64,000 bases of DNA from an uncultured Candidatus Bathyarchaeia archaeon. GTDB taxonomy: Archaea; Thermoproteota; Bathyarchaeia; 40CM-2-53-6. Under the pieces are notes generated by a model. The model worked only from the letters and a program-made list of their open reading frames with translations, was not told where the DNA came from and did no database searches. The stretch lies in assembly GCA_964601325.1 (NCBI GenBank), contig CAZRNA010000001.1, positions 4,042 through 68,041 of the forward strand, given 5' to 3'. Below are positions 5,237 through 52,768 of this stretch, in pieces. The first letter of the stretch is position 1; each line of letters opens with the position of its first letter. The translations under genes and the position numbers were made by a program.

Positions 5237-5310
5237 AGTCGTCTTCAGCAGGCCTCCTTTGTTCTATGGTTGCAGAAAAACGGGAGGCCGGAGTAGGCGA
5301 AATCTTTCGC

Positions 5311-14132: not shown

Positions 14133-16735
14133 TAGGCTCTTTCGCCGTATGTTTCTAGGAATCCCCGACATTCTTCAATAGATTCCTTGGTTATCGAAGG
14201 CTTGATTCCCTTGACGGCGTTCTGAAGGTCTCGCGTTGTGATCTTCTCGTGTTCTATCCCCTTTACCGTATCGCGTACTGCTGTCATCTTGGCTTCTCTG
14301 ACGATCGCTGCTATGTCTGCGCCGCTGTAGCCCTCCGTTGACCTTACTAAGACGTCATAGTCGAGGTCGGCCATTGGAGATTCACGCAGTTCAATCTGGA
14401 ATATTGCCCTTCTTGCCTCATGGTCGGGCGGGGGAACGTACACTATCTTGTCAAATCGCCCAGGTCGCAGCAAAGCTGCATCGACCCAATGCGGTTTGTT
14501 TGTTGCTGAGAGCACCATCACATTTCGCAGATCTTTGATCCCGTCCATCTCAATCAGCAGTTGTGAGATAGGCTTGACTGCTTGTGTACCTGCTTCCCGT
14601 GAAGAGGCAAGACTCTCTATCTCGTCTATGAAAACTATCGCGGGAGTGTTTTCTCGAGCTCTATAGAAGAGCTCTTTTATCGCTGCGGCTATTTCTCCCG
14701 CCGACTTGTGAGAAAGTTCCCCTCCACTTGTAGTCAGAAAAGTGGCCTCTAATGAACCCGCGGCTGCTTTCGCAATCAGCGTTTTCCCACATCCTGGGGG
14801 TCCGAAGAGAAGCAGGCCCTTCGTGGACTGAAGACCATATTTCTTCATGAGTTCAGGGCGTTTGAGTGGCAGCTCTATCGTCTCCATGATAATCCGCTTG
14901 ACGTTGTCCAATCCTGCGATGTCTGCGAAGGTCACTCGAGGCTTCAGTTCCTCTTCTTTTCTTGACGTTCTTCTTTCGAAGTCTAGCCTCAACTTCTCGT
15001 AGTCTTCGAGCATTTGGATCGTGATGCTGGGCTTGTAGGTGCGAATGGTCTGTGCGAGTTCACTCATTCCGATCGGTACGACTTCTCCTCCTTTCATTGC
15101 TCTCTTGGCGACGTCAACTGCAGTCATCTGCACAGCATTTCGAATGTCGGCACCAGAGAATCTCTCGGATAGGGCAGCCAACTTGTCGTAGTCCACATCT
15201 GCCGCCATCGGTTTGTCTTTGCAGTGTACTTGGAAGATCGCTTTCCTAGCTTCTTTGTCTGGCGGCGCAATGTAGATCACTCTATCGAAACGTCCGGGCC
15301 TTAGAATGGCCTCGTCTAGAAGTTCTGGCTTGTTTGTGGCGCCCACGACCAAGAGCATTGCCTTCTCCTTCTCCAAGCCGTCCATTTCAGAGAGCATCAA
15401 GCTCAGCAGGCGGGGCGTAATATCGTCTGAACCATACAGGTCTCTCTTCTTGGCTATTGAATCGATCTCGTCAAAGAATAGGACCGATGGCGCGGTGGAT
15501 CGCGCGAGTTTGAATACCTCCGTGACTCGCTTCTCGCTTTCCCCGTACCACTTCGAGACGATGTCAGAAGTCTTCACATAATAGAAATTCGACTTCAGAG
15601 TCTGTGCGAGGGCTTTCATCAGAAGGGTCTTTCCACAACCTGGAGGGCCAAAGAGGAGAATTCCTCTAGGGGGTTCCGCTCCGTACGTTCTTGCAACATC
15701 AGATTTCTGTAGTGGCATCAGCACGGAGTCGTGGATCTCCTGCTTGAGCTGGCTGTAGCCTCCTATCTGGTCCCAGGCCAATTCCGGCTTGGCCTCTCTC
15801 TTCTCGAGTACGGGTTGAGCCACGGTCGTTGTTTGCGCCGCCCTAGCCTTCTGAAGAGCTGTCATCCTCGAGAGGTCCGTTCTTGCGAGTTGAAGAGAGA
15901 AAGTCACGAAGAGACCAAACGCTAATCCAAACATCATCTCGAACCCAAAATTCGATACAAAGATTGAAGATCCATAGGTGTAGGCAGCGGCCAATGGCAA
16001 GAAGCCTAACGCAGTCGCCACCGTCCACGGGTAAGCTCGTGTCCACTTCTTGGCGACCATCCCTGTAACGTATCCCGCTAGGCCCCAGCAGGCCGTCTCG
16101 ATGTAGAACGTCACATCGTCTATGAGATTCCTGAGCAACGTGGCTTGAAGTTGCCCGTATGCCGCCGGACTAGGACTTCGTGAATCATAGATGAATGATA
16201 GAGGAAGCCATGGATCCGGCAGTGGCTGAGGTGGCTGAACAGTAGGGACGTAGGGCACCACCAACAGTGCAAAGTTCGTTGTTCCCTTCATCCAGCCTAG
16301 CAAGAAGAGAGAAACCGCTAGACTCACTCCAGCCAATGCTCCATCCTTCGATCCAATGACCAAGCCACAAACAATCAGGGGCACGAACGCGATGATTGAG
16401 AGCGGGGAAAGAGCCAACGCCCATGCCAAGACCACCAGAGAGAGCGAGGGCCAAGTTCTATTCAACGCAAGCACGAGAAGGCATAGGGAGGCATAGACTA
16501 GTCCGAAGAACGTATTCTGGTAGTAGGCCGGGAGGATCGACAAAAACAGTCCCGTCGCAAGCGCGGCCATTGGATACTTCAAAGAAAGGATGAAAATGCC
16601 GATAACGAGAATGGCGACGATGAATAACGGGAAATACGGGAAAAGAAGCAAGACATAGAGGGACAGACAGACTGCAACCAGGCCACGAAAACTCCTGATC
16701 AGAATCGGAGAGCCAAGGAGGTCCATTCTCGTCAA
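14132..16735 (-). CDS. Membrane-anchored Cdc48/VCP-like tandem AAA+ ATPase. The first about 290 aa form a polytopic membrane domain, followed by D1 and D2 AAA modules
   Basis: Two 'GPPGCGKT' Walker A motifs are each followed by 'DEID/DEIE' Walker B and second-region-of-homology Arg ('RPGRFD'). The N-terminal 290 aa are almost entirely hydrophobic helices. Confidence 0.8.
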   Translation of the reverse strand: MTRMDLLGSPILIRSFRGLVAVCLSLYVLLLFPYFPLFIVAILVIGIFILSLKYPMAALATGLFLSILPAYYQNTFFGLVYASLCLLVLALNRTWPSLSLVVLAWALALSPLSIIAFVPLIVCGLVIGSKDGALAGVSLAVSLFLLGWMKGTTNFALLVVPYVPTVQPPQPLPDPWLPLSFIYDSRSPSPAAYGQLQATLLRNLIDDVTFYIETACWGLAGYVTGMVAKKWTRAYPWTVATALGFLPLAAAYTYGSSIFVSNFGFEMMFGLAFGLFVTFSLQLARTDLSRMTALQKARAAQTTTVAQPVLEKREAKPELAWDQIGGYSQLKQEIHDSVLMPLQKSDVARTYGAEPPRGILLFGPPGCGKTLLMKALAQTLKSNFYYVKTSDIVSKWYGESEKRVTEVFKLARSTAPSVLFFDEIDSIAKKRDLYGSDDITPRLLSLMLSEMDGLEKEKAMLLVVGATNKPELLDEAILRPGRFDRVIYIAPPDKEARKAIFQVHCKDKPMAADVDYDKLAALSERFSGADIRNAVQMTAVDVAKRAMKGGEVVPIGMSELAQTIRTYKPSITIQMLEDYEKLRLDFERRTSRKEEELKPRVTFADIAGLDNVKRIIMETIELPLKRPELMKKYGLQSTKGLLLFGPPGCGKTLIAKAAAGSLEATFLTTSGGELSHKSAGEIAAAIKELFYRARENTPAIVFIDEIESLASSREAGTQAVKPISQLLIEMDGIKDLRNVMVLSATNKPHWVDAALLRPGRFDKIVYVPPPDHEARRAIFQIELRESPMADLDYDVLVRSTEGYSGADIAAIVREAKMTAVRDTVKGIEHEKITTRDLQNAVKGIKPSITKESIEECRGFLETYGERA

Positions 16736-16984: not shown

Positions 16985-18319
16985 ATGAAGAGGACTCAGG
17001 TCAAAGTACTCGCTCTCTTCGTCATCCTCTGTTCCCTCACTCTGTTAGGTCAGATGCCACGCGAAACACTTGCTCAAACAGGAGAGATTGAGGTTGATAA
17101 CCTTCGAGGTGTGCAGTACCAAACCTCCGAGGACGTGTTCTCCAATGCAGCGGTGAACGGCACATTCTATTGGTGGGTTCCGGTGAAGAACCAGGAGAGC
17201 GGCACCCTGAACGGCGCCACTGTCGAAGTCGTGACCCGATTACCTTCTACATGGTTTGAATATTTCGGGCCAGATCCCAACTCAACTCTTCAGAAGGGAG
17301 ACGATTATCTCTACACATGGAAGATGGGGTCGATAGCTCCTCGTGGCGAGCAGGGGATTTCGCTTGGAAGCAAGTCCGTAGAGAAATTCGCACCCGGATT
17401 CGACTCTCGAAGAGTTTTGATTCCTGGCATAATCGAGTCCCAGATTTCGAACCAGACAGTTGTTGTGTCGGTCACACCGCGTGAGAGTCTGCAGCGAATC
17501 GAGGCTGAAGTATATCTTGAGCAAGGCACTGGTGTTTCGGCGGCTTTCATTCTCTCCACCGCGCTCCCCAAAGTTGACTGGACTTGGGATGATGGAAGAG
17601 GGTTAGGTTGGGGGCTCGATAATCCCAAACCTAATCATGAATACACGTTCAGAGTCATGCTTCAGCTGAAGAACCCAACCTACCCGAACAAGATGTTCTA
17701 CAAGCCCAGGGTTACGGTACGTTCGATAGAAGGGAGAGAGCAGACGAGATCTAGAGGCTCATCTCTCGTGGCCAAGGATGAGGTTCTAGGTACAATCACG
17801 TACTCTCTGCCTGGTAATCATGAATGGTTCTACTACCATGATCACAGGAAGGAGGTTGTGCATCGGTACTCATTAGGGGTGCCGTTCGTTGCGTTGATGA
17901 TTGATAGTCCGACAGCTTTGTCGGTGGTGAAAGGGGTTATGAACATCTCAGCCTCAGCTGTCTCTTCGAGTGGAACGGTACTGGCCATGCAGTGTCGAAT
18001 TGATGGAGGAGAATGGATGCCCTTGAACCCCGGTAACGAGACTCAGAAGGAGTATGGATATGGGGCTCTGGGTGCAAAGTCAGCCTATGTCGGCTCGATC
18101 GACTGGGATACCACTCCCTTGCCGGACGGCCCCCATGAAATCACTATTAGAGCAGAAGACTCAAACGGCATAGCCGACAACAAGACCATCACCGTCATAG
18201 TCGACAACTCTGGGCCAAGGTTCGTCGGGTACTCGCAGATCATCAACTTCGTCTATGTCGTCGCAATAGTCATCGGAATTGTCGGGTTAGTATGGATAGT
18301 GGACAGAAAACGTCGATAG
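16985..18319 (+). CDS. Secreted/cell-surface protein with N-terminal signal peptide and C-terminal TM anchor ending in RKRR
   Basis: 'MKRTQVKVLALFVILCSLTLLGQ' is a signal peptide. The C-terminal 'VYVVAIVIGIVGLVWIVDRKRR' is a TM anchor. It is divergent from the AAA gene. Confidence 0.45.
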   Translation: MKRTQVKVLALFVILCSLTLLGQMPRETLAQTGEIEVDNLRGVQYQTSEDVFSNAAVNGTFYWWVPVKNQESGTLNGATVEVVTRLPSTWFEYFGPDPNSTLQKGDDYLYTWKMGSIAPRGEQGISLGSKSVEKFAPGFDSRRVLIPGIIESQISNQTVVVSVTPRESLQRIEAEVYLEQGTGVSAAFILSTALPKVDWTWDDGRGLGWGLDNPKPNHEYTFRVMLQLKNPTYPNKMFYKPRVTVRSIEGREQTRSRGSSLVAKDEVLGTITYSLPGNHEWFYYHDHRKEVVHRYSLGVPFVALMIDSPTALSVVKGVMNISASAVSSSGTVLAMQCRIDGGEWMPLNPGNETQKEYGYGALGAKSAYVGSIDWDTTPLPDGPHEITIRAEDSNGIADNKTITVIVDNSGPRFVGYSQIINFVYVVAIVIGIVGLVWIVDRKRR

Positions 18320-31196: not shown

Positions 31197-31730
31197 GTGC
31201 CTCGTTTGAACGACATGTTGCTTGGAGGATCTGGAATGAACGCGAAATCTATGGTAGTTGTCGCGACGCTTCTTGCTATGGTAATCTTGGCTTACAACGC
31301 AAGCGCCTATGCATGGAACTCTTCTCCTCAGATAACGAATTCTCTTGACGGTTCTGGGAACACAGTTCTCACTATCCAATTCGATTTCTCGCAAATGTCG
31401 GATCCGCCCACGGCGAGTCACCACCCGACTGACTTCCAGGTTCGCACCTCTACAGACGGATCTTCATGGACCGAGCAGGCTGTCGTCCACATCACATCGA
31501 TACCGGCAACAACCGTATTCACCGTGACCTATTCTCTCGGGAAAGTCACAGGCGATCTTCAAGCCCAAGCAAGACTCAATTGTAACGTCCATGGATGGAG
31601 TAACTGGGGACCGGACCCGGCAGTCCCTGTTCCGGAATTTCCCTTCGGAATGGTCACTGTGACCTCACTGTTGCTCCTGGTGGGAAGCCTCCTACTGGTC
31701 CGCAGGGAACGCCCAGCGTATTCGTCCTAA
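31197..31730 (+). CDS. Secreted protein with signal peptide and PEF-CTERM-like C-terminal sorting signal
   Basis: N-terminus 'MNAKSMVVVATLLAMVILAYNASAYA'. C-terminus 'PVPEFPFGMVTVTSLLLLVGSLLLVRRERP' has a PEF tripeptide, then a TM helix, then an Arg-rich tail. Confidence 0.45.
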   Translation: MPRLNDMLLGGSGMNAKSMVVVATLLAMVILAYNASAYAWNSSPQITNSLDGSGNTVLTIQFDFSQMSDPPTASHHPTDFQVRTSTDGSSWTEQAVVHITSIPATTVFTVTYSLGKVTGDLQAQARLNCNVHGWSNWGPDPAVPVPEFPFGMVTVTSLLLLVGSLLLVRRERPAYSS

Positions 31731-33674: not shown

Positions 33675-34646
33675 ATGCCTGAAAGCGCGATTAGAACACG
33701 CGGCCTCACAAAAGTCTTCGGAAAATTCACTGCTGTAGACGGCTTGAACTTGGATGTCAAACAGGGTGAATTGTTTGGCCTGCTTGGTCCAAACGGTGCC
33801 GGGAAGACTACTACCGTTCGCATGCTCTGTACCCTTATCGAACCGACAAGCGGCACGGCGACCGTTGCCGGTTACGACCTCGCAAGGGAGGCCGCCAAAG
33901 TCAGACGTGAGATCGGCGTTGTCTCGGAGGGTGTCATGCTCTACAAGGAGCTGACTATTGAGGAGAATCTGAGATTTCTCAGCAGACTGTACAACCTCCC
34001 TAGCGGAGAAGCAGAGAACAGGATAGCGCACTTGCTCGAGATGTTCAGGTTCGAAGACAAAGCAAAACGAATGGTGAAGGCCCTCTCGTCAGGTTGGACC
34101 AAGAAAGCACTGATTTGTGCAGCCCTCCTTCACAATCCGAAGATACTCTTCCTTGATGAAGTGACCTCTGGCCTAGATCCGCAGTCGGCAGCAGCCCTTC
34201 AAGACTTCACTAAGAGCCTTTGCAAGGAAGGTGTCACAGTCATCTGGACAACTCACTACATGACGGAGCCCGAGAAGATCTGCGACCGCGTGGGAATCGT
34301 GTTTGCGGGGAGACTGATCCAGGTAGGCTCGCCCAGTGATCTGAAGCGCAAGGTAAGCGAGCTCTCCGTCATGGAGGTTGAGACGCCAGGATTGTCAACA
34401 CAACAGCTGGAGAAGATCAAGAACATAGAAGACGTAGCCAACATCTCTTACAGTGATCCGGTCCTCAGAATCACGTGCGTGCATGATCACGCACTTGCAG
34501 AAAACGTAACGAGAATCCTTCTGTCCGAAGGTGCCAAGATCAGATCGATCAACACGAAAGGACCGACACTGGAAGAAGCTTTCATCAAACTGACTGGTGG
34601 CGAAGAAGAGATCGACCGCTTCCTCGAGAAAGGCCGGACAGAATAG
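33675..34646 (+). CDS. ABC transporter ATP-binding protein (ABC-2 / DrrA-like exporter ATPase)
   Basis: Walker A 'GPNGAGKTT', signature 'LSSGWTKKA', Walker B 'ILFLDEVTSGLD' and an H-loop. Confidence 0.85.
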   Translation: MPESAIRTRGLTKVFGKFTAVDGLNLDVKQGELFGLLGPNGAGKTTTVRMLCTLIEPTSGTATVAGYDLAREAAKVRREIGVVSEGVMLYKELTIEENLRFLSRLYNLPSGEAENRIAHLLEMFRFEDKAKRMVKALSSGWTKKALICAALLHNPKILFLDEVTSGLDPQSAAALQDFTKSLCKEGVTVIWTTHYMTEPEKICDRVGIVFAGRLIQVGSPSDLKRKVSELSVMEVETPGLSTQQLEKIKNIEDVANISYSDPVLRITCVHDHALAENVTRILLSEGAKIRSINTKGPTLEEAFIKLTGGEEEIDRFLEKGRTE

Positions 34647-34692
34647 ACGCAACAAGCGAGCGAAGCCAAATCACACAGACGTGGATGCATTA

Positions 34693-35846
34693 ATGTCTAC
34701 TAGGACGTTCCTCGGCGATCTCTTGGCAGTCATGACCAACGAATTTCGCCTTTTGAGGCGTAATCGTTCCGCGATCATAATCTCCCTTGTCATTCTGCCG
34801 ATCTTCTTCACAATATCTCTTGGAGGAGCTAGTGGCGGGGCGGGTGAGCACTTCACACCGACAGCACATATAGCCATCGCCTACGTTGATAATGATCTGA
34901 CGATTGCTTCAGGTCGCCTCTTCGCGACGCTTTCAAGCTCGGGGAATTTCAACAATCTAGTTCAAGGTTACAGCGAAGAGAGCGCCATTAGAACACTAGG
35001 AACCGGAAAGATCTACGCAGCAATCATAGTACCCAAGGGCTTTGAAGGTAACCTTGCAAAGGACAAGCAAGTCACCTTGGTAGTCTACGTGGATGACAGC
35101 ATAAACGAGCTAGGAGGCCAAGTCGTCTCAAGCCTACAGACCAGCCTGCAGAACTTCAGCCCGCGTGCTGAGGTAGGACCCCTTCTCAGCAAGGGTGCGT
35201 CACAAGTCGAGATTATTCAGAAAGGAGCCAAGTTCTCGAGTTTCAACATAGGCCTGACGATCATTCTAGCTTTGGTCATAATATTCGCAACATTCTACGA
35301 AATCGCGGGGGGCATGTCACGCGAGAGCGAGGAGGGAACCTATGTGGCCTGCTCATGAGCCCTATCAGTCTTGGAGCTGTAATGCTTGGAAAGACAACGT
35401 ATGATGTGGCTCTCAACATAGCACGTACGCTCATAGTTTTCGCACTCGCCTTCTACGCTTACGGAGCGAGGCCGAGTACCGACTTCGCTACAATCTTAGC
35501 GATCTCACTCCTCATAGCTTTGCTGACGATGGGGTTTGGATTCTTGATTTCTGCGATTGGAATAGGGGTGAGAGCGGTCATCATCATCGAGTTTTTCCTC
35601 GTGTTGTTCCTTTTCGCGTTCAGCGGGTTCATTATCGATAGAGAACTGCTGAGAGGGATATCAAGCACAATCTCGTACCTGCTGCCATGGGCGTATGGCA
35701 TCGAGATATTGAAGCGTACCATACTCATTGGACAACCTCTGCTTACCCTGGCGACCCCGCTCGGATTCATCATAGTATCGATCGTGACGTTCTACGGCAT
35801 TGCCTACGTTCTTCTGAGGTTGTCGCGAGAGAGGCTTGTCACATGA
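34693..35846 (+). pseudogene. ABC-2 family permease split into two ORFs (34597..35358 and 35355..35846) by an apparent -1 frameshift near 35340
   Basis: The conserved TM2-TM3 linker motif 'IAGExExGTLExLLxSP' is read as 'IAGGMSRESEEGT' in frame 1 and continues as 'LCGLLMSPIS' in frame -1. The two halves together make about 416 aa with 6 TM helices. Confidence 0.45.
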
Positions 35847-36955
35847 ATCGTTTCGCTCGCGACACGACAACTGTCACTCTCAAGGAACTGAAACAGCTCC
35901 TGCGCGATCCGCTTTCCTTGGCTCTGACGATAATGTTCCCGATATTCTTGATCCAAATCTTTGTTGTCATAGTCACAGCATTCGGTGCCCCTAGCTACAA
36001 CGTGGCTGTGGTCGTTTCAGATCTTGATGGCTCACCCATGTCGAAGAGTCTGGTAGACAAACTGGCCAACTCACGTTTGATCAAGGTGACACAATTCGTT
36101 CAAACAGAAGAACAGGCTTTGCATTCCGTCGAATCAGGAGCGGCGACAGGAGCAGTAATCATTCCAAAGGGCTTCGGCGACGCACTACTCAATAATCGGC
36201 AGGCCTTCGTTGTTCTTCAGACTGACAACTCGAAGATCACATCTTCTTCCTTGGTTCAGAGCGCCGTAAGCGAGAGCACGCAGAGCCTTCTGGAGCTGGT
36301 GAGCGCCCGCCTCGGCGCAACGCCTGTGGAGGTGATACTGAGGCCCATCTCGGGTCGTCCTCCATCAGGAGATTTTATTCTGCCGGGCATGCTGGGTATG
36401 ATTACGATACTCGGCGCCTTCGACGATATTGTGAACGCCATAACAAGGGAACGCGAACGCGGCACATTTCCACGCCTCGTTCTTACGCCCACGAGTATTC
36501 TATCAATCTATAGCGGAAAGATATCTGCGACAGTTGTCCTTAACGCAATCCGAACAACTCTCATGATCGTAATCTTTGTGCTGACTGGCTTGGTAATAAG
36601 GGGGAATGTGCTCTTGGTCTATTTGACGACTACTCTGATCGCGGTATTCACCATGTCGTTGGGCTTGTTGCTTTCCACAAAGGTTCATAGTTCAGCAACA
36701 CTGACGATCCTCGAAATCGCCATCACGTTTCCGCTTTTCCAGCTTGCAGGCGCGATACAGGCCCCGGAGTCATTGGCGTCAGGAGGAAGAGCGATTGCGG
36801 CAATGTTGCCGTGGACATACGGGAACGACGCCCTAAGACGTGTCATCTACCTTGGAGTTGGGTTCGACGCGTTAGCTGTCGACTTCGTGGTTCTCTTGTT
36901 GAGCAGCCTTGTCTTGTTGCCAATTGCAACCCTGCTGTCAAAACGCACCATGTAG
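35843..36955 (+). CDS. ABC-2 family permease (second membrane subunit)
   Basis: An ATGA start overlaps the previous stop. N-terminus 'LKELKQLLRDPLSLALTIMFP', a large extracytoplasmic loop, then five C-terminal TM helices. Confidence 0.65.
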   Translation: MNRFARDTTTVTLKELKQLLRDPLSLALTIMFPIFLIQIFVVIVTAFGAPSYNVAVVVSDLDGSPMSKSLVDKLANSRLIKVTQFVQTEEQALHSVESGAATGAVIIPKGFGDALLNNRQAFVVLQTDNSKITSSSLVQSAVSESTQSLLELVSARLGATPVEVILRPISGRPPSGDFILPGMLGMITILGAFDDIVNAITRERERGTFPRLVLTPTSILSIYSGKISATVVLNAIRTTLMIVIFVLTGLVIRGNVLLVYLTTTLIAVFTMSLGLLLSTKVHSSATLTILEIAITFPLFQLAGAIQAPESLASGGRAIAAMLPWTYGNDALRRVIYLGVGFDALAVDFVVLLLSSLVLLPIATLLSKRTM

Positions 36956-37032: not shown

Positions 37033-38289
37033 GTGATCTTGACTCGGCGAGTATTGGTTCTCTCGATCATGCTGATCACCGTGATGGCCATGCCTTTTGT
37101 TAGCAGCATCGGAGCGGTCTCTGAACCAAACGTTGTTGTTACGTCGGTGTATTGGGGAACCAACCCGCTAGGGGGCATCTCTGTGCATCCGGGTGACACG
37201 AACATACCCCTGTCGATTGATCTGTCCAACGCCGGAGATGCAGCAGCCCGCGATGTCAGTGCTACGCTTGTGTTGGCGTCTCCGTTCAGCTACGCCTACA
37301 ACGTTAACGGAAGCGAAGTGAACGCTGGAACAGTTGACCAGAGCGCCGGCGATATTCAAGCAGGCTACTCCTTCACTTTGCGGTATGCTTTGACAGTTGC
37401 TTCGGATGCGATTGCGGGGATTCACAGGCTCACGCTCATAGTTGATTACAAGACTGCCAGGGAACTGCTGCCCGTGGAGAAGACCCTCTCCGTGGACGTG
37501 CCCGTGTGGACGGGTGATGTTCGCGTTCAAAACGTCGTGACCGTACCCGCGAAAGTCTACCCAGGCGACAATCAAATCACCGTGAAGGCGTGGCTCGTGA
37601 ACTCGGGGACTGGATCAACGGCCGACTTTCAAGTGCGCCTCGTTCTGCAGGACCCGTTCCAAGCGTCCTCCGGAGGGTCGGACACGTTCTTTCTCGGAAC
37701 GATGCAGCCAGGACAGGTCAGCGAAGCAGACTTCTACGTTGACATCAGCAAATCGGCCCAGTTCGGAAGCTACAACCTCAAACTCGTCACCGTCTCAGCT
37801 GGATCCAGCGGACAGGTGGAGATTGGACAGATCCCGATCTACGTGAGCGAGAAAGTAGTATTCGAAGTCGTTCAGTTGGAGCCTAAGGTTGTTCACGCCG
37901 GCGACTCTGGCGTCAGCATACAAGTAACTATCAAGAACACTGGAACCGTCGCTGCAGATTCAGTTAGGGCACAGCTGATGGTCGGCAACTACTTCTCAGG
38001 AACGCTCACCGACTTCCTCGGGACGATGCAACCAGGCGAATCAAAGACCGCATACCTGACAGTTGACGTAGACTCAAAGGCCACCTCTCAAGTATACAAG
38101 ATGGATTTGCGCCTTGACTGGACCCAATCAGACAACAGCCTCGACAACACTCTCCCAGTGGAACTGCAGGTAGCCTCTGCTGAACTTCCACTGCCATTGA
38201 TTGCAGTGGCCGTCGTGTTGCTCGTGCTTGTAGCTGCAGTTCTCGTTCGCAGAAGAAGAAAGGCTCAAGAACAGAAGCTCAAGACTTGA
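37033..38289 (+). CDS. Cell-surface (S-layer-like, COG1361/CARDB-like) protein with signal peptide and C-terminal TM anchor
   Basis: A signal peptide is followed by repeated beta-rich segments ('DFQVRLVLQDPF', 'DFLGTMQPGE...AYLTVDV'). The C-terminus 'LPLIAVAVVLLVLVAAVLVRRRRK' is a TM anchor. The gene is adjacent to the ABC-2 operon. Confidence 0.5.
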   Translation: MILTRRVLVLSIMLITVMAMPFVSSIGAVSEPNVVVTSVYWGTNPLGGISVHPGDTNIPLSIDLSNAGDAAARDVSATLVLASPFSYAYNVNGSEVNAGTVDQSAGDIQAGYSFTLRYALTVASDAIAGIHRLTLIVDYKTARELLPVEKTLSVDVPVWTGDVRVQNVVTVPAKVYPGDNQITVKAWLVNSGTGSTADFQVRLVLQDPFQASSGGSDTFFLGTMQPGQVSEADFYVDISKSAQFGSYNLKLVTVSAGSSGQVEIGQIPIYVSEKVVFEVVQLEPKVVHAGDSGVSIQVTIKNTGTVAADSVRAQLMVGNYFSGTLTDFLGTMQPGESKTAYLTVDVDSKATSQVYKMDLRLDWTQSDNSLDNTLPVELQVASAELPLPLIAVAVVLLVLVAAVLVRRRRKAQEQKLKT

Positions 38290-46305: not shown

Positions 46306-46716
46306 ATGGTTGAGGGAAAAGAAATCCTGGGCGAGCTGAAATACACGAGGGAACATGAGTGGGTTCGCGTTGAAGGCGCCAACTGCAGAATCGGAATCAC
46401 AGACTACGCACAGAATTCCCTTCATGAGGTTGTCTATGCTGACCTCCCGAAGGTCGGAAGAGTGCTGGGCAAAGGGGAGTCATTCGGCACGGTTGAATCG
46501 GTAAAAGCGGTGTCCGAAGTCTACTCTCCCGTGTCGGGCGAAGTCGTGGAGGCGAATCAGAAACTTATTGATGCCCCAGAACTCGTCAACCAGCAACCCT
46601 ACGGAGAGGGATGGCTCATATTGTTGAAGCCTTCGAAGCTAGGAGAGGAACTCAGCTCACTGATGCCCGCGAAGGAATATGGAGAACTGCTCGAGAAACT
46701 GTCGAAAGAGAAGTAG
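46306..46716 (+). CDS. gcvH: Glycine cleavage system H protein
   Basis: The lipoyl-lysine motif 'VESVKAVSEVYSPVSGEV' is present. 136 aa. Confidence 0.8.
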   Translation: MVEGKEILGELKYTREHEWVRVEGANCRIGITDYAQNSLHEVVYADLPKVGRVLGKGESFGTVESVKAVSEVYSPVSGEVVEANQKLIDAPELVNQQPYGEGWLILLKPSKLGEELSSLMPAKEYGELLEKLSKEK

Positions 46717-46797
46717 AACATCACATGGGCGAGTGCATCCATTGTCAAGGTAAGACATAAAAAGCGAAGCCATGGCCGATCATAGCGAGATACCAAG

Positions 46798-47160
46798 ATG
46801 GAAGCGGACACAGCAGATCTCTTCGCCAGCAGACATGCACAGGCACGCTACCTGAAACGATTCGTTCTAAGGAGAATCGCAAAGGGAAAACCTAGCGAGC
46901 CCAATGCAAACTTCTGGGATTGGGAGATAGCGTCAAGATTCATGGAATTTCCATCACTTGAGAATGTCCACCACCTGTGCCTCTTCTATGGCTACGCCAA
47001 AGTGCGCAGCGCACTCATCAAAGTCGAGAGAGCAATCTTCGAGGAGTTCTTCTACGGCAAAATCTTCCTATACCCGTTGTGGTTGAAGAGATTCAGCAGA
47101 ATATTCGACGCCGCAAAACCTAGAGCCCAAATCAGAGAACTACTCTCAAGCCAAGAATGA
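46798..47160 (+). CDS. Hypothetical protein
   Basis: 120 aa with no motif. Confidence 0.3.
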   Translation: MEADTADLFASRHAQARYLKRFVLRRIAKGKPSEPNANFWDWEIASRFMEFPSLENVHHLCLFYGYAKVRSALIKVERAIFEEFFYGKIFLYPLWLKRFSRIFDAAKPRAQIRELLSSQE

Positions 47161-47280
47161 GATCTCTAAAAAAGGAGATTCAGGAGCCACCGGCTCGAAC
47201 GAAACACAACCTAGCCTCAGGCTCGCAGTGGTACGATTCGTTATAGTAGGAGAAGCTTTGAGATCACTGCGGGAGGTCCG

Positions 47281-49431
47281 TTGAGCAAAGTAGTTCTTGC
47301 CGGTTGTACGCTGCTTGCACTTCTCATTCTGCCAATTGTTCCGATCACAATAGCTCCCTCGCTCACACTTGGGATGGAGCCAGTAAGGAACCCTGCCGCT
47401 ATGGGGCATGGTGTGGATAGATCCTCGCCTCAAAGCTCAGTGAACATTGGGAAACTGGGTGGTGACTTCAGACTCATTGTGATCCTGGTGGAATTCGCCG
47501 ATATCAAGCACAAGACATCTGCTGATCAAATTCAGAAGTTAAGCGTGGAACGGATGAACAAGTACTGGCTTGAAGTCTCATACGGCCAATTCAATGTCAT
47601 CAGCGACACTGTCGGATGGTTCGAACTAAGTCATGATGAAGCATACTACGGTAGGGACATGAGCCCCAAAGACCCTGGAAGCGATCAAAATGATCTCGAT
47701 GTAGTCGCCGACGCGTGCAAGTTAGTAGGGAACATAGACTTCAACCAGTATCAGTCTATAATGGTGATTTTCGCGGGGCACGGTCAGGATTCAGATGCCA
47801 AGAACACCGACCTGCTCTGGCCGAGCGCATGGTGGGATGGACTTGAGGCGAAATGTGGAAGCAAGACCTTCGCTAACGGAGGATTCGCTCCTGAGGTTAC
47901 GTCGTACGATACGGTCGATTTCGGGGGTGTCACGCACGAATTCGGCCACACAATCAACTTGCCTGATCTCTACGACGCCGGCCCCAACGCTCCCGACTAT
48001 TGGAAGACACGCGTAGACTTTGTGGGCATGTGGTCTCTGATGGCATCTGGCAGCTGGGGTGGGCCTGACGAGGACGGGACAGATCCTACAGGACTTGAAT
48101 CGTGGAGCAGGATCAAGCTTGGCTGGCTCTCAACCGTATCCATCCCCTTGGCCCCGGGCGGGTTCGTCCAGCAACTCAATCAATTAGGCGATACGACTGG
48201 CCCAAGGGCATTGAAGCTACTAGCAGCAAGCGGCAGATACTATCTGTTCGAGGCCAGGGCCAAGGTCGGAGTGGACAAGTACCTACCCGACTCGGGAGTC
48301 CTCATCACGCTCATAGACGAGTCGAGGGATTCGGGACAGGGCATCGTCAAAGTTGTGGACTGCCACCCTGGGACAAGATCCATTGACGACGCGACCTGCG
48401 GAGTGAACGAGTCATGGTCAGACGCAGCAAACAACATCTACATGAAGGTCATTGGGCAACAGGGAACTAGCTACACTGTCGCGTTCGCAAGCAAACCAAT
48501 AACGACTCTGAAGGTATACACAGCCGAGTTTTCATTGACGGGTGTTCCATCTTCAGCTTCTGCAAACGTCACGGTTGACGGCGCAGAATACGCAGAGATT
48601 ACAGGGAGCGAGAGGCTCGTGCTGGTCTTCCCGCTCGGCTCAACTCACACTGTCACGCTCTCCCAGTGTGCCACGGTTGGTGAGGACACGCGTTATTGCA
48701 CAACCGAAAACACGATCGCAGTCGCGACGCAGGGCACCTATTCAGTTCACTATGACACGAAACAGTATAGACTCCTCGTCGAGACACAGCCCTCATTCAT
48801 CGCATGGCCGATTGAGAAATGGTTCACAGCCGGCCAGACTGAGACGGTCGGACCATACGACGAAACTGTACCCGTGAGTGCCGGCATTCGCTACTTCCTT
48901 CCGGGATTGACAGTAGACGACACTCAACTCAAGGAAAGGACAGTGACTTTGCACATGGACCAACCACACATTGTCAAAGTCAGTTACGTTACCCAATACT
49001 TCCTCAAGATTACCTCGGCTTTCGGAAACCCGAAAGGCGAGGACTGGTATACGTCAGGCGACGTTGCCGAATATTCCGTGACTACTCCCTATGGCGTCCT
49101 GATACAGCACTTCTTCGTCTCATGGACGGGCGATGTGACTTCGGCCCAATCAAAGGGAACGCTGACAATGACAGGACCCTATGCAATTGAGGCCAAATGG
49201 CGGGACGACTACACTCAGCTTTGGGTCGCACTGGTTGTGTTGGCTGCGGTTGCGGCCGGATTCTTGGGCTTGAGACACCGCAAGGCAAAGAAGATCACGC
49301 CGACCACATCCGTTAGCGGTGCTCCCACCTCACAGGCAATACCAACAGAATCAGGCTGGTTCTGCATCAAGTGCGGAGCACCTCTTCCTCCAGATTCGAG
49401 CTTCTGCGAGATCTGTGGCTCTCGACAATAG
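47281..49431 (+). CDS. Secreted M6-like (immune inhibitor A-like) zinc metalloprotease domain protein with a C-terminal TM helix and a cytoplasmic Zn-ribbon tail
   Basis: TTG start after a GGGAGGT SD, then a signal peptide. 'VTHEFGHTINLPDLYD' matches the M6 'HEFGHxLGLPDxYD' motif. Near the C-terminus 'LWVALVVLAAVAAGFLGL' is a TM helix, followed by 'CIKCGAPLPPDSSFCEICG'. Confidence 0.6.
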   Translation: MSKVVLAGCTLLALLILPIVPITIAPSLTLGMEPVRNPAAMGHGVDRSSPQSSVNIGKLGGDFRLIVILVEFADIKHKTSADQIQKLSVERMNKYWLEVSYGQFNVISDTVGWFELSHDEAYYGRDMSPKDPGSDQNDLDVVADACKLVGNIDFNQYQSIMVIFAGHGQDSDAKNTDLLWPSAWWDGLEAKCGSKTFANGGFAPEVTSYDTVDFGGVTHEFGHTINLPDLYDAGPNAPDYWKTRVDFVGMWSLMASGSWGGPDEDGTDPTGLESWSRIKLGWLSTVSIPLAPGGFVQQLNQLGDTTGPRALKLLAASGRYYLFEARAKVGVDKYLPDSGVLITLIDESRDSGQGIVKVVDCHPGTRSIDDATCGVNESWSDAANNIYMKVIGQQGTSYTVAFASKPITTLKVYTAEFSLTGVPSSASANVTVDGAEYAEITGSERLVLVFPLGSTHTVTLSQCATVGEDTRYCTTENTIAVATQGTYSVHYDTKQYRLLVETQPSFIAWPIEKWFTAGQTETVGPYDETVPVSAGIRYFLPGLTVDDTQLKERTVTLHMDQPHIVKVSYVTQYFLKITSAFGNPKGEDWYTSGDVAEYSVTTPYGVLIQHFFVSWTGDVTSAQSKGTLTMTGPYAIEAKWRDDYTQLWVALVVLAAVAAGFLGLRHRKAKKITPTTSVSGAPTSQAIPTESGWFCIKCGAPLPPDSSFCEICGSRQ

Positions 49432-49568
49432 AGCTACACAACAGACTAGAGGAACGAGCTCTCGGCATCAATTGCTTGATTCCGCTCGTTTCCGGCATGA
49501 TATCAGTTCACCTTTTACGCGCTAGACAGTCGATAGATTCGACTACGATGTCCGGCAGGGAAACATGA

Positions 49569-50267
49569 TTGACACAGGTCGAGGATGTGATTCCTTCCCG
49601 ATGCGAGCCCCTTGACGCCCTGCTAGATGGCGGTTTCACGATTGGAGAGATCGTCGTCGTCTACGGTGAGGCGAGGACGGGCAAGACCACCCTCACGATC
49701 CAGACCAGCGTAGAAGCTGCGCGTCGCGGTTCAAAGGTTCTCTATATCGACACTGACCACTCTTTCACTCATCAACGGTTCGCGCAGTTGACAGGAGAAG
49801 ACTCCGATGCCGTGAGCGAACGGATACTCCTGTTCTTCCCGGATACCTTTTCGGACCAAACCAGCCTTGTGGAAAGCGTTGAGAACTACTTGACAAAGTC
49901 GACACGGCTGATCGTCGTGGATTCGATCACGTCACTATACAGAGTCAGCCTCGGTCCTGCGCAACAGACATTCGCTCTCAACAGGGAGTTAAACAGACAA
50001 CTTGCCTATCTAAGTGAAGTTGCGGTGCGCGGCAAACTCGTCGTGCTCTTGACAAGCCAAGTACATGCAAGAATGGACTTTCCTTTCGGACGGATTGAAC
50101 CGGTCGCGCGTCGAACACTTGCACATTGGCCTCGCACAATCATAAGACTGAAGAACACGCCAGAGCAATCAAGGAAAGATATCATAGTGGAACGCCGAAA
50201 AGGAAGACAAACCGGCTCATTGAGATGCTCAGCGAAACTCACAGCTCGAGGATTCGAGCCAATCTGA
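49569..50267 (+). CDS. radB: RadB-like RecA-superfamily ATPase
   Basis: 'VVVYGEARTGKTTLTIQ' is Walker A and 'LVVLLTSQV' is Walker B-like. A RadB-like length of about 230 aa with no N-terminal HhH domain. Confidence 0.6.
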   Translation: MTQVEDVIPSRCEPLDALLDGGFTIGEIVVVYGEARTGKTTLTIQTSVEAARRGSKVLYIDTDHSFTHQRFAQLTGEDSDAVSERILLFFPDTFSDQTSLVESVENYLTKSTRLIVVDSITSLYRVSLGPAQQTFALNRELNRQLAYLSEVAVRGKLVVLLTSQVHARMDFPFGRIEPVARRTLAHWPRTIIRLKNTPEQSRKDIIVERRKGRQTGSLRCSAKLTARGFEPI

Positions 50268-50334
50268 CCTTTATTACAACCCAGCTCATCACAGAGATTT
50301 TGAGAGGCTGAGAGCGCAAGAGAGCGAAAACCAC

Positions 50335-50835
50335 ATGTTCGACTTGAACGATCTACTGATCGCAATCTACGTGGCAATTCCAACGTATGTCGCGAACTCC
50401 ACTCCCGTCTTGCTTGGAGGAGGAGTCCCCATTGATCGAGGGAGAGAGTTCGTTGACGGCCGCCAGATACTCGGAACCAACAAGACGGTGAAAGGATTCG
50501 CGTATGGACTATTGCTAGGCAGCGTGGCAGCTGCGGCAGAAGCCATCTTATTCGGGAACCACTTGCTCGTGCTTGTCGGAGTTCTCGCTAGCCTCGGAGC
50601 GTTGCTCGGAGACCTTTTCGGAGCCTTCGTTAAGAGGAGGCTGGACATTCCGCCTGGACACCCTCTACCTGTGGTCGATCAGCTAGATTTCATCTTGGGT
50701 GCGCTCGTCCTGGTTTCTCCGTTGCTAAACGTAACGGTAGGCGCGGTCTTGATCCTAGTGATAGCAACTGTCCCGATTCACTTGTTATCCAATGCGGTAG
50801 CGTACGTGCTACGATTGAAGAAGCGTCTCTGGTAA
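50335..50835 (+). CDS. carS: CDP-archaeol synthase (CarS, UPF0290/DUF46 family)
   Basis: 166 aa with 5 TM helices. 'YVANSTPVLLGGGVPIDRGREFVDGRQILGTNKTVKGFAYG' matches the conserved CarS N-terminal segment. Confidence 0.5.
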   Translation: MFDLNDLLIAIYVAIPTYVANSTPVLLGGGVPIDRGREFVDGRQILGTNKTVKGFAYGLLLGSVAAAAEAILFGNHLLVLVGVLASLGALLGDLFGAFVKRRLDIPPGHPLPVVDQLDFILGALVLVSPLLNVTVGAVLILVIATVPIHLLSNAVAYVLRLKKRLW

Positions 50836-50848
50836 GGTCTAGGTCAGC

Positions 50849-51322
50849 CTAGCCGCCCTTTTGTGCAAGAAGTTGCCCTGAGTAGTAGATCACGATGACT
50901 GTAGTCACGAACCCGATGATTAGGAGAATGTATGCATTTCTGGGGCGATAGGCGAATCTCGTGCTCCTATATAGCATGTAGAAGCCTGACAGGCCGAGAA
51001 GATAGAGTATGCCGGAGAGAATGCTCTCGTTCAGCGTCTGGGCTCCGAGCCCGCCGGGATATATGAACGTCCAGCCCTGCGAGGTCGATCTTGGAAGGAG
51101 GGAAACGGGCCTTTCAAGGAGATCGTAGATTCCCCCAGCCAGAAAGAACGTGGCTAGGCTAATCGCCACGAGAAACAGGACCGTCCATGAACCCTTGAGT
51201 CCTGCCGCCCCGGGGGCGCGAACTAAGCGAAGTCTGTATGCAACGTTTCCGAGGCTCCGCCTGATTCTCCACGGCGCACGCCTAAGCCAATTCCTGAGCC
51301 CTACAGACATCGTTCGTCGCAC
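50849..51322 (-). CDS. Hypothetical membrane protein
   Basis: A basic N-terminus is followed by 3-4 TM helices. Confidence 0.3.
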   Translation of the reverse strand: MRRTMSVGLRNWLRRAPWRIRRSLGNVAYRLRLVRAPGAAGLKGSWTVLFLVAISLATFFLAGGIYDLLERPVSLLPRSTSQGWTFIYPGGLGAQTLNESILSGILYLLGLSGFYMLYRSTRFAYRPRNAYILLIIGFVTTVIVIYYSGQLLAQKGG

Positions 51323-51387
51323 GCGGATAATGGCAAGAAGTTAAAATACGTTGCCTCACTTCCCGATGCTCTACCGAGGCTACTTGG

Positions 51388-51561
51388 ATGCCCCAACGCG
51401 TCTTCTGTCACGCATGCGGCGCTACCCTCTATGATGGACTCGAGCTTGAATCACCCACCGAGATAATCCAGCGATACAACGGAACCTGCCCCAAATGTCA
51501 GAAGAAGCTCTCATTCGAACCTGAGGCAGTAAGAATAATCCCGTCCGAAGACAAAACATAA
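51388..51561 (+). CDS. Small (57 aa) Zn-ribbon protein, missed by the 60-aa ORF cutoff
   Basis: 'MPQRVFCHACGATLYDG...TCPKCQKK' carries CxxC...CxxC. It lies just upstream of gcvT. Confidence 0.35.
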   Translation: MPQRVFCHACGATLYDGLELESPTEIIQRYNGTCPKCQKKLSFEPEAVRIIPSEDKT

Positions 51562-51622
51562 CAGTTCGCGAACAGGCAGCTTCAATGCACGGACCTGACA
51601 AGAGTGCAGACAGAGGCTAGCG

Positions 51623-52768
51623 TTGTGGGAGTATGTTCCTATGCCGTTGAAGACCCAACTGCATGACTACCATCTACAGAATGGTAAGGTCGTTGACTTT
51701 GCAGGATTCGAGATGCCAATATGGTACAAAGGGATAATCCCCGAGACGTTGGTGGTTAGAAACCAGGTTGGCATTTTCGATGTCTCGCACATGGGCAGAG
51801 CGATAGCTCGAGGCACAAATGCCGAAGCATTCCTCAACTTCGTAACCACCAACGATGTCAGCGCGCTTAAGCCCGGACAAGCACACTACACGTTACTATG
51901 TAACGATAGAGGGGGCATCAAGGATGATATCATCGTGCTTCGCCTCGAGCCGGAGCGATTCGTCGTCATCTTCAACGCTGGCAACCGGAAGAAGGATGCA
52001 GACTGGCTGAAGGCACAAGCTGCGCGAAGCGACGCAGATCTCACAGACGTATCAGATGAGACAGCTCTAATCTCACTTCAAGGCCCGAAAGCTCAAGCCA
52101 CACTCGGAAAACTGTCGAAGATAGAACCGTCGAAGGTTCCGCGGTTCGGATGCGTAGAGACAGAGGTCGATGGCATTGGATGTCTTGTCTCTCGAACAGG
52201 CTACACGGGTGAGGATGGGTTTGAGATACTGGTGTGGGAATGCCCGATCTCCAATCCCGGAAAAGCTGAACGTGTTTGGAACTCTTTGCTTGCCGGTGGT
52301 AAAGAGTTCGGGATAGAACCCTGCGGGTTGGGCTCCAGGGACGCTCTGAGATTAGAGGCAGGGATGTGCCTCTACGGAAACGATATTGACGAAGAAGTTA
52401 GCCCGTACCAGGCGCGTCTTGGGTTCACGGTGAAGCTCACGAAGTCGGACTTCATCGGCAAGAAGGCTCTTGAGAAACAGAAGGCTGAAGGCGCGAGACT
52501 TCTGCGAATAGGCCTGAAGGCTACAGCTCAAGGCATACCAAGACCCGGATATGAGATCGTGAAGGATACTACCGCTATTGGAAAGTTGACGAGCGGAACC
52601 TTCTCGCCGACTCTGAACCTGGGCATCGCGATGGGATACGTTCCTCGTGAACACGCAACTGAAGGTCAAACGCTTGGAATCATGATCCGAGGAAGACGAG
52701 TAGATGGTGTTGTCACAAAGTTCCCATTCTATCCTACCGACAAGTACGGCTGGCAGAGAAAGACATAG
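51623..52768 (+). CDS. gcvT: Glycine cleavage system T protein (aminomethyltransferase)
   Basis: The N-terminal signature 'FAGFEMPIWYKG...DVSHMG' and a GcvT_C barrel of about 370 aa are present. Confidence 0.8.
   Translation: MWEYVPMPLKTQLHDYHLQNGKVVDFAGFEMPIWYKGIIPETLVVRNQVGIFDVSHMGRAIARGTNAEAFLNFVTTNDVSALKPGQAHYTLLCNDRGGIKDDIIVLRLEPERFVVIFNAGNRKKDADWLKAQAARSDADLTDVSDETALISLQGPKAQATLGKLSKIEPSKVPRFGCVETEVDGIGCLVSRTGYTGEDGFEILVWECPISNPGKAERVWNSLLAGGKEFGIEPCGLGSRDALRLEAGMCLYGNDIDEEVSPYQARLGFTVKLTKSDFIGKKALEKQKAEGARLLRIGLKATAQGIPRPGYEIVKDTTAIGKLTSGTFSPTLNLGIAMGYVPREHATEGQTLGIMIRGRRVDGVVTKFPFYPTDKYGWQRKT

Follow-up and report, generated by a model that had tools for sequence, protein, structure and literature searches.

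A predicted membrane-anchored M6 metalloprotease of a Bathyarchaeia archaeon carries a C-terminal zinc-ribbon tail that also occurs on unrelated surface proteins

Introduction

A 64,000-nucleotide stretch of DNA from an uncultured Candidatus Bathyarchaeia archaeon (GenBank assembly GCA_964601325.1, contig CAZRNA010000001.1; hereafter the window) encodes a membrane-anchored metalloprotease of peptidase family M6 with a zinc-ribbon tail. The gene is an open reading frame (ORF) of 716 codons plus a stop codon at positions 47281–49431 of the forward (+) strand, with a TTG start. From the N to the C terminus, the protein consists of a signal-like segment, an M6 catalytic domain, a stalk of three β-sandwich domains, a transmembrane (TM) helix, a basic cluster with a linker, and a C4 zinc ribbon. 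Judged by sequence comparison, the ribbon is not specific to the protease, and the TM-linker-ribbon tail appears to be portable among several unrelated surface proteins of this archaeal lineage. The reading that we prefer, and consider probable, is that of a surface-tethered M6 zinc endopeptidase, likely nutritional, whose generic, portable ribbon would serve as a docking knob. Computation supports the family membership, the integrity of the active site, the domain layout, and the conservation and portability of the tail; that the protein is exported, loses its signal peptide, binds zinc and is active are predictions, and so are its substrate and the role of the ribbon.

In anoxic sediments and soils, few uncultured archaea are as abundant as Bathyarchaeia, which have repeatedly been proposed as degraders of detrital protein. 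A conserved, surface-tethered M6 metalloprotease provides a concrete, expressible candidate enzyme for this activity. Whether such an enzyme is tethered or released changes how extracellular proteolysis is modelled, because a tethered enzyme and its products would remain at the cell. What may be of interest is less the protease itself than the tail of TM helix, linker and ribbon, which is shared and swappable. Ribbons of the PF13240 type occur widely on the cytoplasmic side of single-pass proteins and have no established function, and a lineage in which ribbon-tailed proteins are grouped in islands is a good place to seek the partner of the tail.

The catalytic domain and its stalk

A homologue search returned 69 proteins, of which P0001–P0046 make up a close family and P0047 and P0048 are more distant; the architecture of the window protein is shared by P0001–P0047. 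The family alignment and profile were built from 32 family members, and all counts of invariance given below refer to those 32.

The M6 metzincin domain of the thuringilysin/InhA type spans residues ~61–371 (47461–48393, + strand). The hidden Markov model (HMM) TIGR03296 matched residues 68–343 with a score of 149.3 bits against a cut-off of 110.8, covering model positions 2–285 of 286, and PF05547, which is matched by 32/32 aligned homologues, scored 50.5 bits against a gathering score of 22. HExxH occurs only once in the protein, at residue 219, within HEFGHTINLPDLYD (res. 219–232). The zinc-binding motif HEFGHTINLPD (H219, E220, H223, N226, D229) is encoded at 47935–47967, and a candidate Met-turn, M254 in W-S-L-M, at 48040–48042. 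H219, E220, H223, D229 and M254 are invariant in all 32 homologues.

When compared with the Protein Data Bank (PDB), the 32-member profile found a sole distinct sequence match, Bacillus anthracis InhA2 (PDB 4YU5/4YU6, E = 9e-18); a single-sequence phmmer search of the same database returned only noise, so that the family profile was needed to reach it. In the profile alignment, FTHEFGHTIGLPDLYDT pairs with FAHAFGHDLGLPDEYDT, HEFGHTINLPD with HAFGHDLGLPD of the 4YU5 construct, and WSLMasGSW with WSLMSGGSW, which places the candidate Met-turn on that of InhA2. An AlphaFold2 (AF2) model of the protein has a mean predicted local distance difference test (pLDDT) score of 75, with most of the catalytic part between 70 and 90 and three loops of low confidence. 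Foldseek searches with this model ranked 4YU5/4YU6 first (E = 1.7e-10 to 1e-9, probability 1.00); fragilysin and ADAM/adamalysin metzincins came next.

As every testable sequence and fold feature of the family is present (scores above the HMM thresholds, HExxH with an Asp ligand, the Met-turn and a metzincin/InhA-like fold), the protein is a member of peptidase family M6. The preliminary description of this gene, made from the letters alone, had recognised an M6 'immune inhibitor A' motif and pointed to TIGR03296 as the model to run. Its assignment is borne out by both HMMs, the InhA2 profile match, Foldseek and the invariant residues, and the HExxH region did not align to a non-peptidase family. 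Zinc-dependent endopeptidase activity of the ectodomain is predicted from the intact active site.

InhA2, classified in MEROPS as M6 ('thuringilysin'), shares with the window protein the catalytic family, the HExxHxx(G)xxD motif, in which the third ligand is Asp, and WSLM. The two proteins differ in most other respects. InhA is a soluble, secreted bacterial zymogen with different C-terminal domains, whereas the window protein is archaeal, anchored and ribbon-tailed. InhA2 also has an insertion of ~220 residues, where the alignment skips chain residues 374–592, that is absent in the window protein. In the latter, the catalytic domain is compact and fits the TIGR03296 model (286 positions) as a whole; the protein also has a β-sandwich stalk, and Asn at the Gly position of the zinc motif.

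The stalk (res. 372–643; 48394–49209, + strand) comprises a short β element and three β-sandwich domains; modelled separately, it is all-β with a pLDDT of 90.5. Its last two units (res. 493–570 and 571–645) are homologous repeats of a divergent InlB-B-repeat type (hhalign E = 9e-5). Pfam gave no match to the stalk of the window protein alone, and PF18998 was detected in 9/32 relatives. A shorter, two-domain stalk is present in the more distant half of the family. The fold of the stalk resembles pilin-like and SlaB-like folds, although the similarity to Sulfolobus SlaB (PDB 8QOX chain B) is weak and generic, and SlaB has neither a protease domain nor a zinc ribbon.

Codon 226 (47956–47958) specifies Asn at the Gly position of the metzincin motif. 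This position is Gly in 23/32 relatives and N, D, K, R or G in the window's own sub-clade, where the other active-site residues are invariant. The metzincin consensus reads HExxHxxG/NxxH/D, and in thuringilysins the third ligand is Asp (PMC12237041); the window protein fits this consensus as HExxHxxNxxD. The replacement of the metzincin Gly by N, D, K or R in the closest relatives could be taken as a sign of relaxed constraint, in which case the protein would be a catalytically impaired pseudo-protease serving as a surface binding protein or adhesin, a role that would suit the resemblance of its stalk to pilin and adhesin domains. We consider this very improbable. The five invariant active-site residues, together with many of those around them, are retained in 32/32 homologues, the sub-clade included, and the catalytic domain is the most conserved region of the protein, with a mean identity of 0.64. 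Moreover, Asn is an accepted alternative at the motif Gly in some metzincins, active ones included (PMC12237041).

Membrane topology

A Kyte-Doolittle scan found only two hydrophobic segments, at residues 1–32 and 644–667. The first (47281–47376, + strand) is a predicted Sec signal peptide or signal anchor, in which 19-residue windows score 1.97–2.67; the AF2 model begins with a helix at residues 3–16 and then becomes disordered. Hydropathy and a T-L-G/M site suggest a signal peptide that would be cleaved. The sequence L-A-G-C at residues 6–9 was considered as a lipobox and rejected, being too near the N terminus and not conserved in the family consensus.

The second segment forms the single TM helix with a basic stop-transfer cluster (res. 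645–667, ...LWVALVVLAAVAAGFLGLRHR; 49213–49281, + strand) and is modelled by AF2 as a helix at residues 645–669. In the complete family members, with or without a ribbon, a TM segment is found at the corresponding place. The C-terminal part of the protein reads ...WRDDYTQ-LWVALVVLAAVAAGFLGL-RHRKAKK-ITPTTSVSGAPTSQAIPTESGWF-CIKCGAPLPPDSSFCEIC-GSRQ, so that the acidic WRDDYTQ precedes the TM helix and RHRKAKK, with five basic residues in seven, follows it. The ectodomain has an isoelectric point (pI) of 4.7, and the tail, with four Cys, one of 8.5. Between the TM helix and the ribbon lies a cytoplasmic linker that is basic, rich in P/T/S/A and low in identity among homologues (res. 668–692; 49282–49356, + strand). 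It is predicted to be disordered, with pLDDT below 50 at residues 668–691. Depending on where the end of the TM helix is placed, this linker measures ~25–30 aa; across the family it is mostly 25–33 aa long, with a range of 21–59.

Concordant predictions thus support an exported ectodomain, one TM helix and a cytoplasmic C terminus, because the N-terminal segment, the acidic ectodomain, the acidic and basic flanks of the TM helix and the basic tail all agree. The preliminary description had proposed an N-terminal signal peptide, a large extracellular region and a single TM helix near the C terminus, and this layout stands, the term 'signal peptide' resting on hydropathy and the T-L-G/M site. 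Its estimate of about 45 cytoplasmic residues was slightly low, the tail comprising ~50 (res. 667–716).

A conserved cytoplasmic zinc ribbon

The protein ends in a putative C4 zinc ribbon (res. 693–716; 49357–49428, + strand) whose motif, CIKCGAPLPPDSSFCEIC (res. 695–712), carries C695, C698, C709 and C712. PF13240 (Zn_Ribbon_1) matches this end of the protein only just above its gathering score of 25, with 25.5 bits (E = 1.1e-5). This marginal score gains support from the tail alignments, in which all four Cys are invariant, as is the Gly after Cys 2 and after Cys 4. PF13240 is matched by 21/32 homologues at E ≤ 0.01. In the AF2 model, the last ~25 residues fold as a small ribbon with a pLDDT of ~70–76. 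The cytoplasmic zinc-ribbon end described earlier is present, and zinc binding by its four Cys is predicted.

The tail is conserved well beyond close relatives. The TM helix, basic cluster, linker and CxxC-x11-CxxC terminus are found together in 28/32 aligned members, down to 29–44% identity, which answers the earlier question of whether orthologues keep the ribbon. Four aligned members (P0025, P0028, P0031 and P0048), as well as P0046, keep the TM helix and lack the ribbon. Mean pairwise identity is 0.64 in the catalytic domain, 0.47 in the stalk, 0.29 in the TM helix, 0.18 in the linker and 0.55 in the ribbon, which thus comes close to the catalytic domain. The difference between ribbon and linker indicates that the ribbon is probably under selection and that the linker behaves as a spacer. 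A fusion or assembly artefact, which had been raised as a possibility, is excluded by this conservation and by the presence of the protein on two independent contigs.

Searches with the tail itself gave little information. The tail profile had no significant match in the PDB, the best being a 'putative regulatory protein' at E = 0.035, with eL40 at ~0.3. An exhaustive HMM search with the same profile matched 21,885 representative clusters at E ≤ 1e-3; the best 150 of these are mostly soluble poly-ribbon proteins with a median of 8 ribbons, 110 of them without a TM segment, and are uninformative on the C-terminal tag. Ribbons of the generic PF13240 type are extremely common. A word-indexed search with the tail alone gave no candidates, and one with the tail alignment found only short ribbon proteins (≤151 aa) that carry no architectural information.

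The same tail on unrelated surface proteins

Islands of genes for ribbon-tailed surface proteins were found on contigs of more distant M6 members, namely L084 (M6 member P0044), L085 (P0045) and L087/L088 (P0033). They extend over L084:3468–11951, L087:1715–11206 and L085:3–4554, with six genes in 13.7 kb at L084 and four at L087. Neighbouring genes at L084, L085 and L087 encode unrelated ectodomains followed by a TM helix, a basic cluster, a P/A/S/T-rich linker and a terminal ribbon; they include a 683/702-aa HExxH protein, several proteins of 210–300 aa and one InlB-repeat protein. A BLASTP comparison of the L087 M6 protein with the adjacent HExxH protein was significant only over the tail (E = 1e-13). 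The same tail on unrelated ectodomains argues for a generic role rather than for signalling specific to the protease.

The ribbons come in two flavours, ...FC[IM]xCGAxLPxxAxFCxxCGx[KR]Q at the very end of the protein (flavour 1) and [WH]CIxCGxxIxxESVFCE[HY]CGAxQPES... (flavour 2). The flavour-1 ribbon of the M6 member P0030 shares 80% identity with the ribbon of a neighbouring 293-aa protein (L087:10325–11206). Its closest M6 relatives, of which P0033 was compared, have flavour-2 ribbons with 36% identity to that of P0030. This difference suggests that tails have been exchanged between surface-protein genes. In 1.25 Mb of loci, a non-random sample, ORFs with a TM segment and a C-terminal ribbon were found in archaeal loci only and in 0 of ~60 bacterial loci.

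It is possible, though we would put it at clearly below even chances, that the tail is an exchangeable tag that marks a set of Bathyarchaeia surface proteins and couples them to a common cytoplasmic partner. The clients of such a tag would be two metalloprotease types, small β-sandwich proteins and InlB-repeat proteins, often encoded in islands, and the M6 protein would be one client among them. This would amount to a previously undescribed archaeal system for the positioning, clustering or quality control of surface proteins, or for outside-in communication. No description of a C-terminal ribbon tag on archaeal surface proteins was found in the literature searched, which was limited to a searchable library. 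The combination of PF05547 with PF13240 is already present in precomputed database annotations, where it is unremarked.

A portable C-terminal module could also be a sorting or processing tag, by analogy with PGF-CTERM/archaeosortase and LPXTG/sortase, with dedicated machinery that removes the tail or directs the protein to an envelope location or a lipid anchor. Such a tag would fit the presence of the module on many clustered surface proteins (the six at L084 and four at L087), the exchange suggested by P0030, and the restriction of TM plus C-terminal ribbon to archaeal loci in our sample. We nevertheless regard it as unlikely. NCBIfam matched the window protein with TIGR03296 only, and none of its C-terminal sorting-signal models (PGF-CTERM, PEF-CTERM, LPXTG etc.) matched either this protein or nine neighbour proteins; among the neighbour tails, a single sub-threshold match to LPXTG_anchor (15.8 vs 15.9 bits) lay on the TM segment. 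Known sorting signals have a signature motif outside the TM segment and a very short cytoplasmic tail, whereas the conserved element described here is cytoplasmic, lies 25–45 residues from the membrane and belongs to a tail of ~50 aa. No sortase-like gene was seen next to the islands. The sequence 'PAGFGLLF' at the start of the TM segment of neighbour proteins was considered as a PGF-CTERM-like archaeosortase signal and set aside, there being no NCBIfam match.

Several features of the islands are worth recording. Prim-Pol flanks the island at L084, and integrase, DUF87 and MazE that at L087, which hints at a mobile element. Because integrase and Prim-Pol genes adjoin two of the islands, viral contigs were scanned for the M6 family, and no relatives were found there. 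The ribbon-tailed HExxH protein (683–702 aa; L084:7962–10070 and L087:8129–10180) is a second putative metalloprotease, with the motif HE(V/A)GHxxGLxHPH, and is encoded directly downstream of the M6 gene at both loci. It has only sub-threshold matches to matrixins, reprolysins and serralysins, and it may represent an undescribed metzincin family. Immediately upstream of the M6 gene at L088 and divergent from it, on the reverse (−) strand (4710–5669), lies a gene whose cytoplasmic product has three zinc ribbons in tandem and an unassigned, Cys/His/Asp-rich C-terminal domain; this protein is possibly a cytoplasmic partner of the tails, or its position may be a coincidence. Finally, L017:1–1992 (Methanomassiliicoccales) and L022:2–856 (Thermoplasmata) encode a different C-terminal ribbon, CxxCG-x13-CPSCGE, ~35–40 residues after a strong TM segment, and thus the layout of a TM helix followed by a C-terminal ribbon recurs in other archaeal lineages.

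Comparison with anchored proteases and ribbon proteins

A profile scan of reference genomes yielded 80 M6 loci that were kept and examined; a single-sequence scan of the same genomes for relatives of the M6 protein found nothing. The relatives at these 80 loci are ≤40% identical in their best segment, and the close family is not represented among them. A C-terminal TM helix, usually followed by only a short basic tail, is present in 11 archaeal M6 homologues, namely those of Bathyarchaeia (L001–L003), Sigynarchaeum (L005), Thermoplasmata (L007, L009 and L025), Methanomassiliicoccales (L017), an unclassified archaeon (L048), Woesearchaeota (L069) and Nanoarchaeota (L073). Like the window protein, these have an N-terminal hydrophobic segment, a single C-terminal TM helix and a basic cluster, and they share its mode of tethering. 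They differ in ending a few residues after the basic cluster, without linker or ribbon, and are 23–37% identical to the window protein. Most bacterial M6 homologues at the 80 loci end in domains of the type IX secretion system (T9SS) or in other C-terminal domains. The earlier statement that M6 peptidases are normally fully secreted thus fails for archaea, and what sets this M6 family apart is the linker and ribbon rather than the anchoring.

The type-I layout of signal peptide, metzincin domain, spacers, TM helix and cytoplasmic tail is also that of ADAMs and MT-MMPs. ADAM/adamalysin catalytic domains are among the fold matches, which does not imply homology outside the catalytic fold, and the likeness is a functional analogy only. 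ADAMs and MT-MMPs belong to families M12 and M10 rather than M6, have His as the third ligand, and bear SH3/PDZ-type motifs in their tails and no zinc ribbon.

A cytoplasmic C4 ribbon, a TM helix and a large ectodomain are likewise combined in bacterial single-pass proteins with PF13240/PF12773 ribbons, such as the YARHG proteins (PMC3355149) and Staphylococcus aureus TcaA (PMC1687195). In YARHG proteins, the ribbons are N-terminal and often paired, and the topology is type II (PMC3355149). The window protein, by contrast, has a single C-terminal ribbon, type-I topology and a linker of ~30 aa, and its ectodomain is a predicted enzyme, unlike those of the YARHG and TcaA type. The TcaA ribbon is also N-terminal. 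For bacterial proteins that combine a PF13240-type ribbon, a TM helix and an ectodomain, a role as membrane-tethered transcription factors has been put forward (PMC3355149), and for TcaA one as a sensor or transducer (PMC1687195). The literature on the cytoplasmic ribbons of single-pass proteins consists of these hypotheses only.

The preliminary description had suggested signalling, in the manner of an anti-sigma factor or a substrate of regulated intramembrane proteolysis. In that scheme, an event at the ectodomain or its shedding would lead to intramembrane cleavage, and the ribbon, released or still tethered, would act on the transcription or translation machinery. The purifying selection on the ribbon (0.55 vs 0.18 for the linker) would agree with such a role, as would the proposal of tethered transcription factors for the bacterial ribbon proteins (PMC3355149) and the existence of transmembrane transcription regulators in archaea (PMC10269533). 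The ribbon also resembles those of eL40, weakly and non-significantly. To our knowledge, however, archaea have no sigma factors and no sigma/anti-sigma system, so in a Bathyarchaeia host the anti-sigma analogy cannot hold literally. The motif of the tail, CxxC...CxxC without a His ligand, differs from the HxxxCxxC of ZAS proteins, and Pfam and NCBIfam reported no anti-sigma family in the window protein. For a regulator that recognises a specific sequence, the ribbon is very small, at ~24 residues. It is attached to several unrelated ectodomains, small ones among them, and it was lost while the TM helix was kept in P0025, P0028, P0031, P0046 and P0048.

The genes around the protease point in the same direction. 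We scanned 30 further window ORFs with Pfam, 20 larger ones and ten multi-TM or membrane ORFs. The ten, two of which had no Pfam match, comprise transporters, a glycosyltransferase and proteins of unknown function. Proteases of the S2P, rhomboid or presenilin type were not found among them, and one could lie elsewhere in the genome. Neither an intramembrane protease nor a regulator is linked to the M6 gene in the window or in the orthologous loci examined. Taken with the unrelated ectodomains that share the tail, these results count against the signalling proposal, which we hold to be distinctly unlikely, somewhat more so than the sorting tag.

Proposed role

In the reading that we prefer, the M6 protein would be exported by Sec and anchored at the surface in type-I orientation, with the stalk holding the catalytic domain some distance from the membrane. 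The catalytic domain would cleave extracellular proteins or peptides, and the products would be taken up and then catabolised via functions of the amino-acid permease, dehydrogenase and glycine-cleavage type; tethering would keep both enzyme and products at the cell. The ribbon would most likely act as a small docking knob for protein interaction at the end of a flexible leash, and may couple surface proteins to a common cytoplasmic partner for their placement, clustering or turnover. Bathyarchaeia have repeatedly been predicted to use extracellular peptidases (PMC9123169).

Several points weigh against this reading. The possession of peptidases does not prove protein catabolism (PMC9123169), and the nutritional role is drawn from literature on the lifestyle of these archaea. 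The docking role is an argument by exclusion, no solved homologue giving a functional clue. That the protein is exported, processed at its signal peptide, active and zinc-bound is in each case a prediction, and N226 in place of Gly, with D/K/R in close relatives, could affect catalysis. In the window, moreover, only the M6 protein has a ribbon tail, and the lineage-wide tag is seen only in more distant relatives. The other surface proteins of the window use a plain C-terminal TM helix: those encoded on the + strand at 16985–18319 (Big_7), 31197–31730 and 37033–38289 (CARDB/NPCBM_assoc) have an N-terminal hydrophobic segment and no ribbon.

The gene and its genomic context

The complete coding sequence (47281–49431, + strand) is taken from the ORF list and agrees with family members P0001–P0048; an identical 716-aa product was called, with the same start, on two independent ENA metagenome contigs. 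A GGAGGT Shine-Dalgarno-like element (47272–47277, + strand) lies 3 nt 5' of the TTG start. The sequence TTATAG (47241–47246, + strand), read ~35–40 nt 5' of the start codon, may possibly be an archaeal TATA-like promoter element of the M6 gene. The window RadB, CarS and GcvT proteins are ≥90% identical to proteins annotated as coming from Candidatus Bathyarchaeia metagenome-assembled genomes, and the best M6 relatives in the profile scan of reference genomes are likewise from Bathyarchaeia.

The genes around the protease are, in order, a Clp1-like kinase, gcvH, an unknown ORF of 120 aa, the M6 gene, radB, carS and gcvT. This order is conserved at L083, whose M6 protein is 72% identical to that of the window. 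These immediate neighbours have housekeeping functions, and nothing evident connects them functionally with the protease. At six related loci, the neighbours are housekeeping genes or other surface proteins, and no regulator is conserved beside the M6 gene. Within 46306–52768, gcvH and gcvT are separated by the 120-aa ORF, the M6 gene, radB, carS and two small ORFs.

The further window ORFs scanned encode an amino-acid permease, an aspartase/fumarase-class lyase, two formamidase-family enzymes, a Glu/Leu dehydrogenase, a pyridoxal-phosphate enzyme and transporters. GcvH and GcvT, together with the permease, dehydrogenase, lyase and formamidases, form a set for amino-acid uptake and catabolism. 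What had been described as protein-degrading gene content is really of this kind, and Pfam found no other peptidase among the 30 ORFs; the content is compatible with a nutritional protease.

Other genes of the window have unusual features. A small membrane protein (2297–2755, + strand) has an N-terminal CxxC...CxxC (weak zf-HIT) and three TM segments (DUF131), the ribbon thus being N-terminal, in the opposite arrangement to that of the M6 protein. An 867-aa double-AAA ATPase of the Cdc48/Vps4-like type (14132–16735, − strand) has, in place of a recognisable Cdc48 N-domain, a strongly hydrophobic N terminus of at least ~100 residues with several predicted TM segments. An ABC-2 permease (34597–35846, + strand) is present as two overlapping ORFs, 34597–35358 matching the first half of PF12698 and 35355–35846 the second half, which may come from a frameshift or a sequencing error, or the gene may really be split. 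It is followed by a second ABC-2 permease at 35687–36955.

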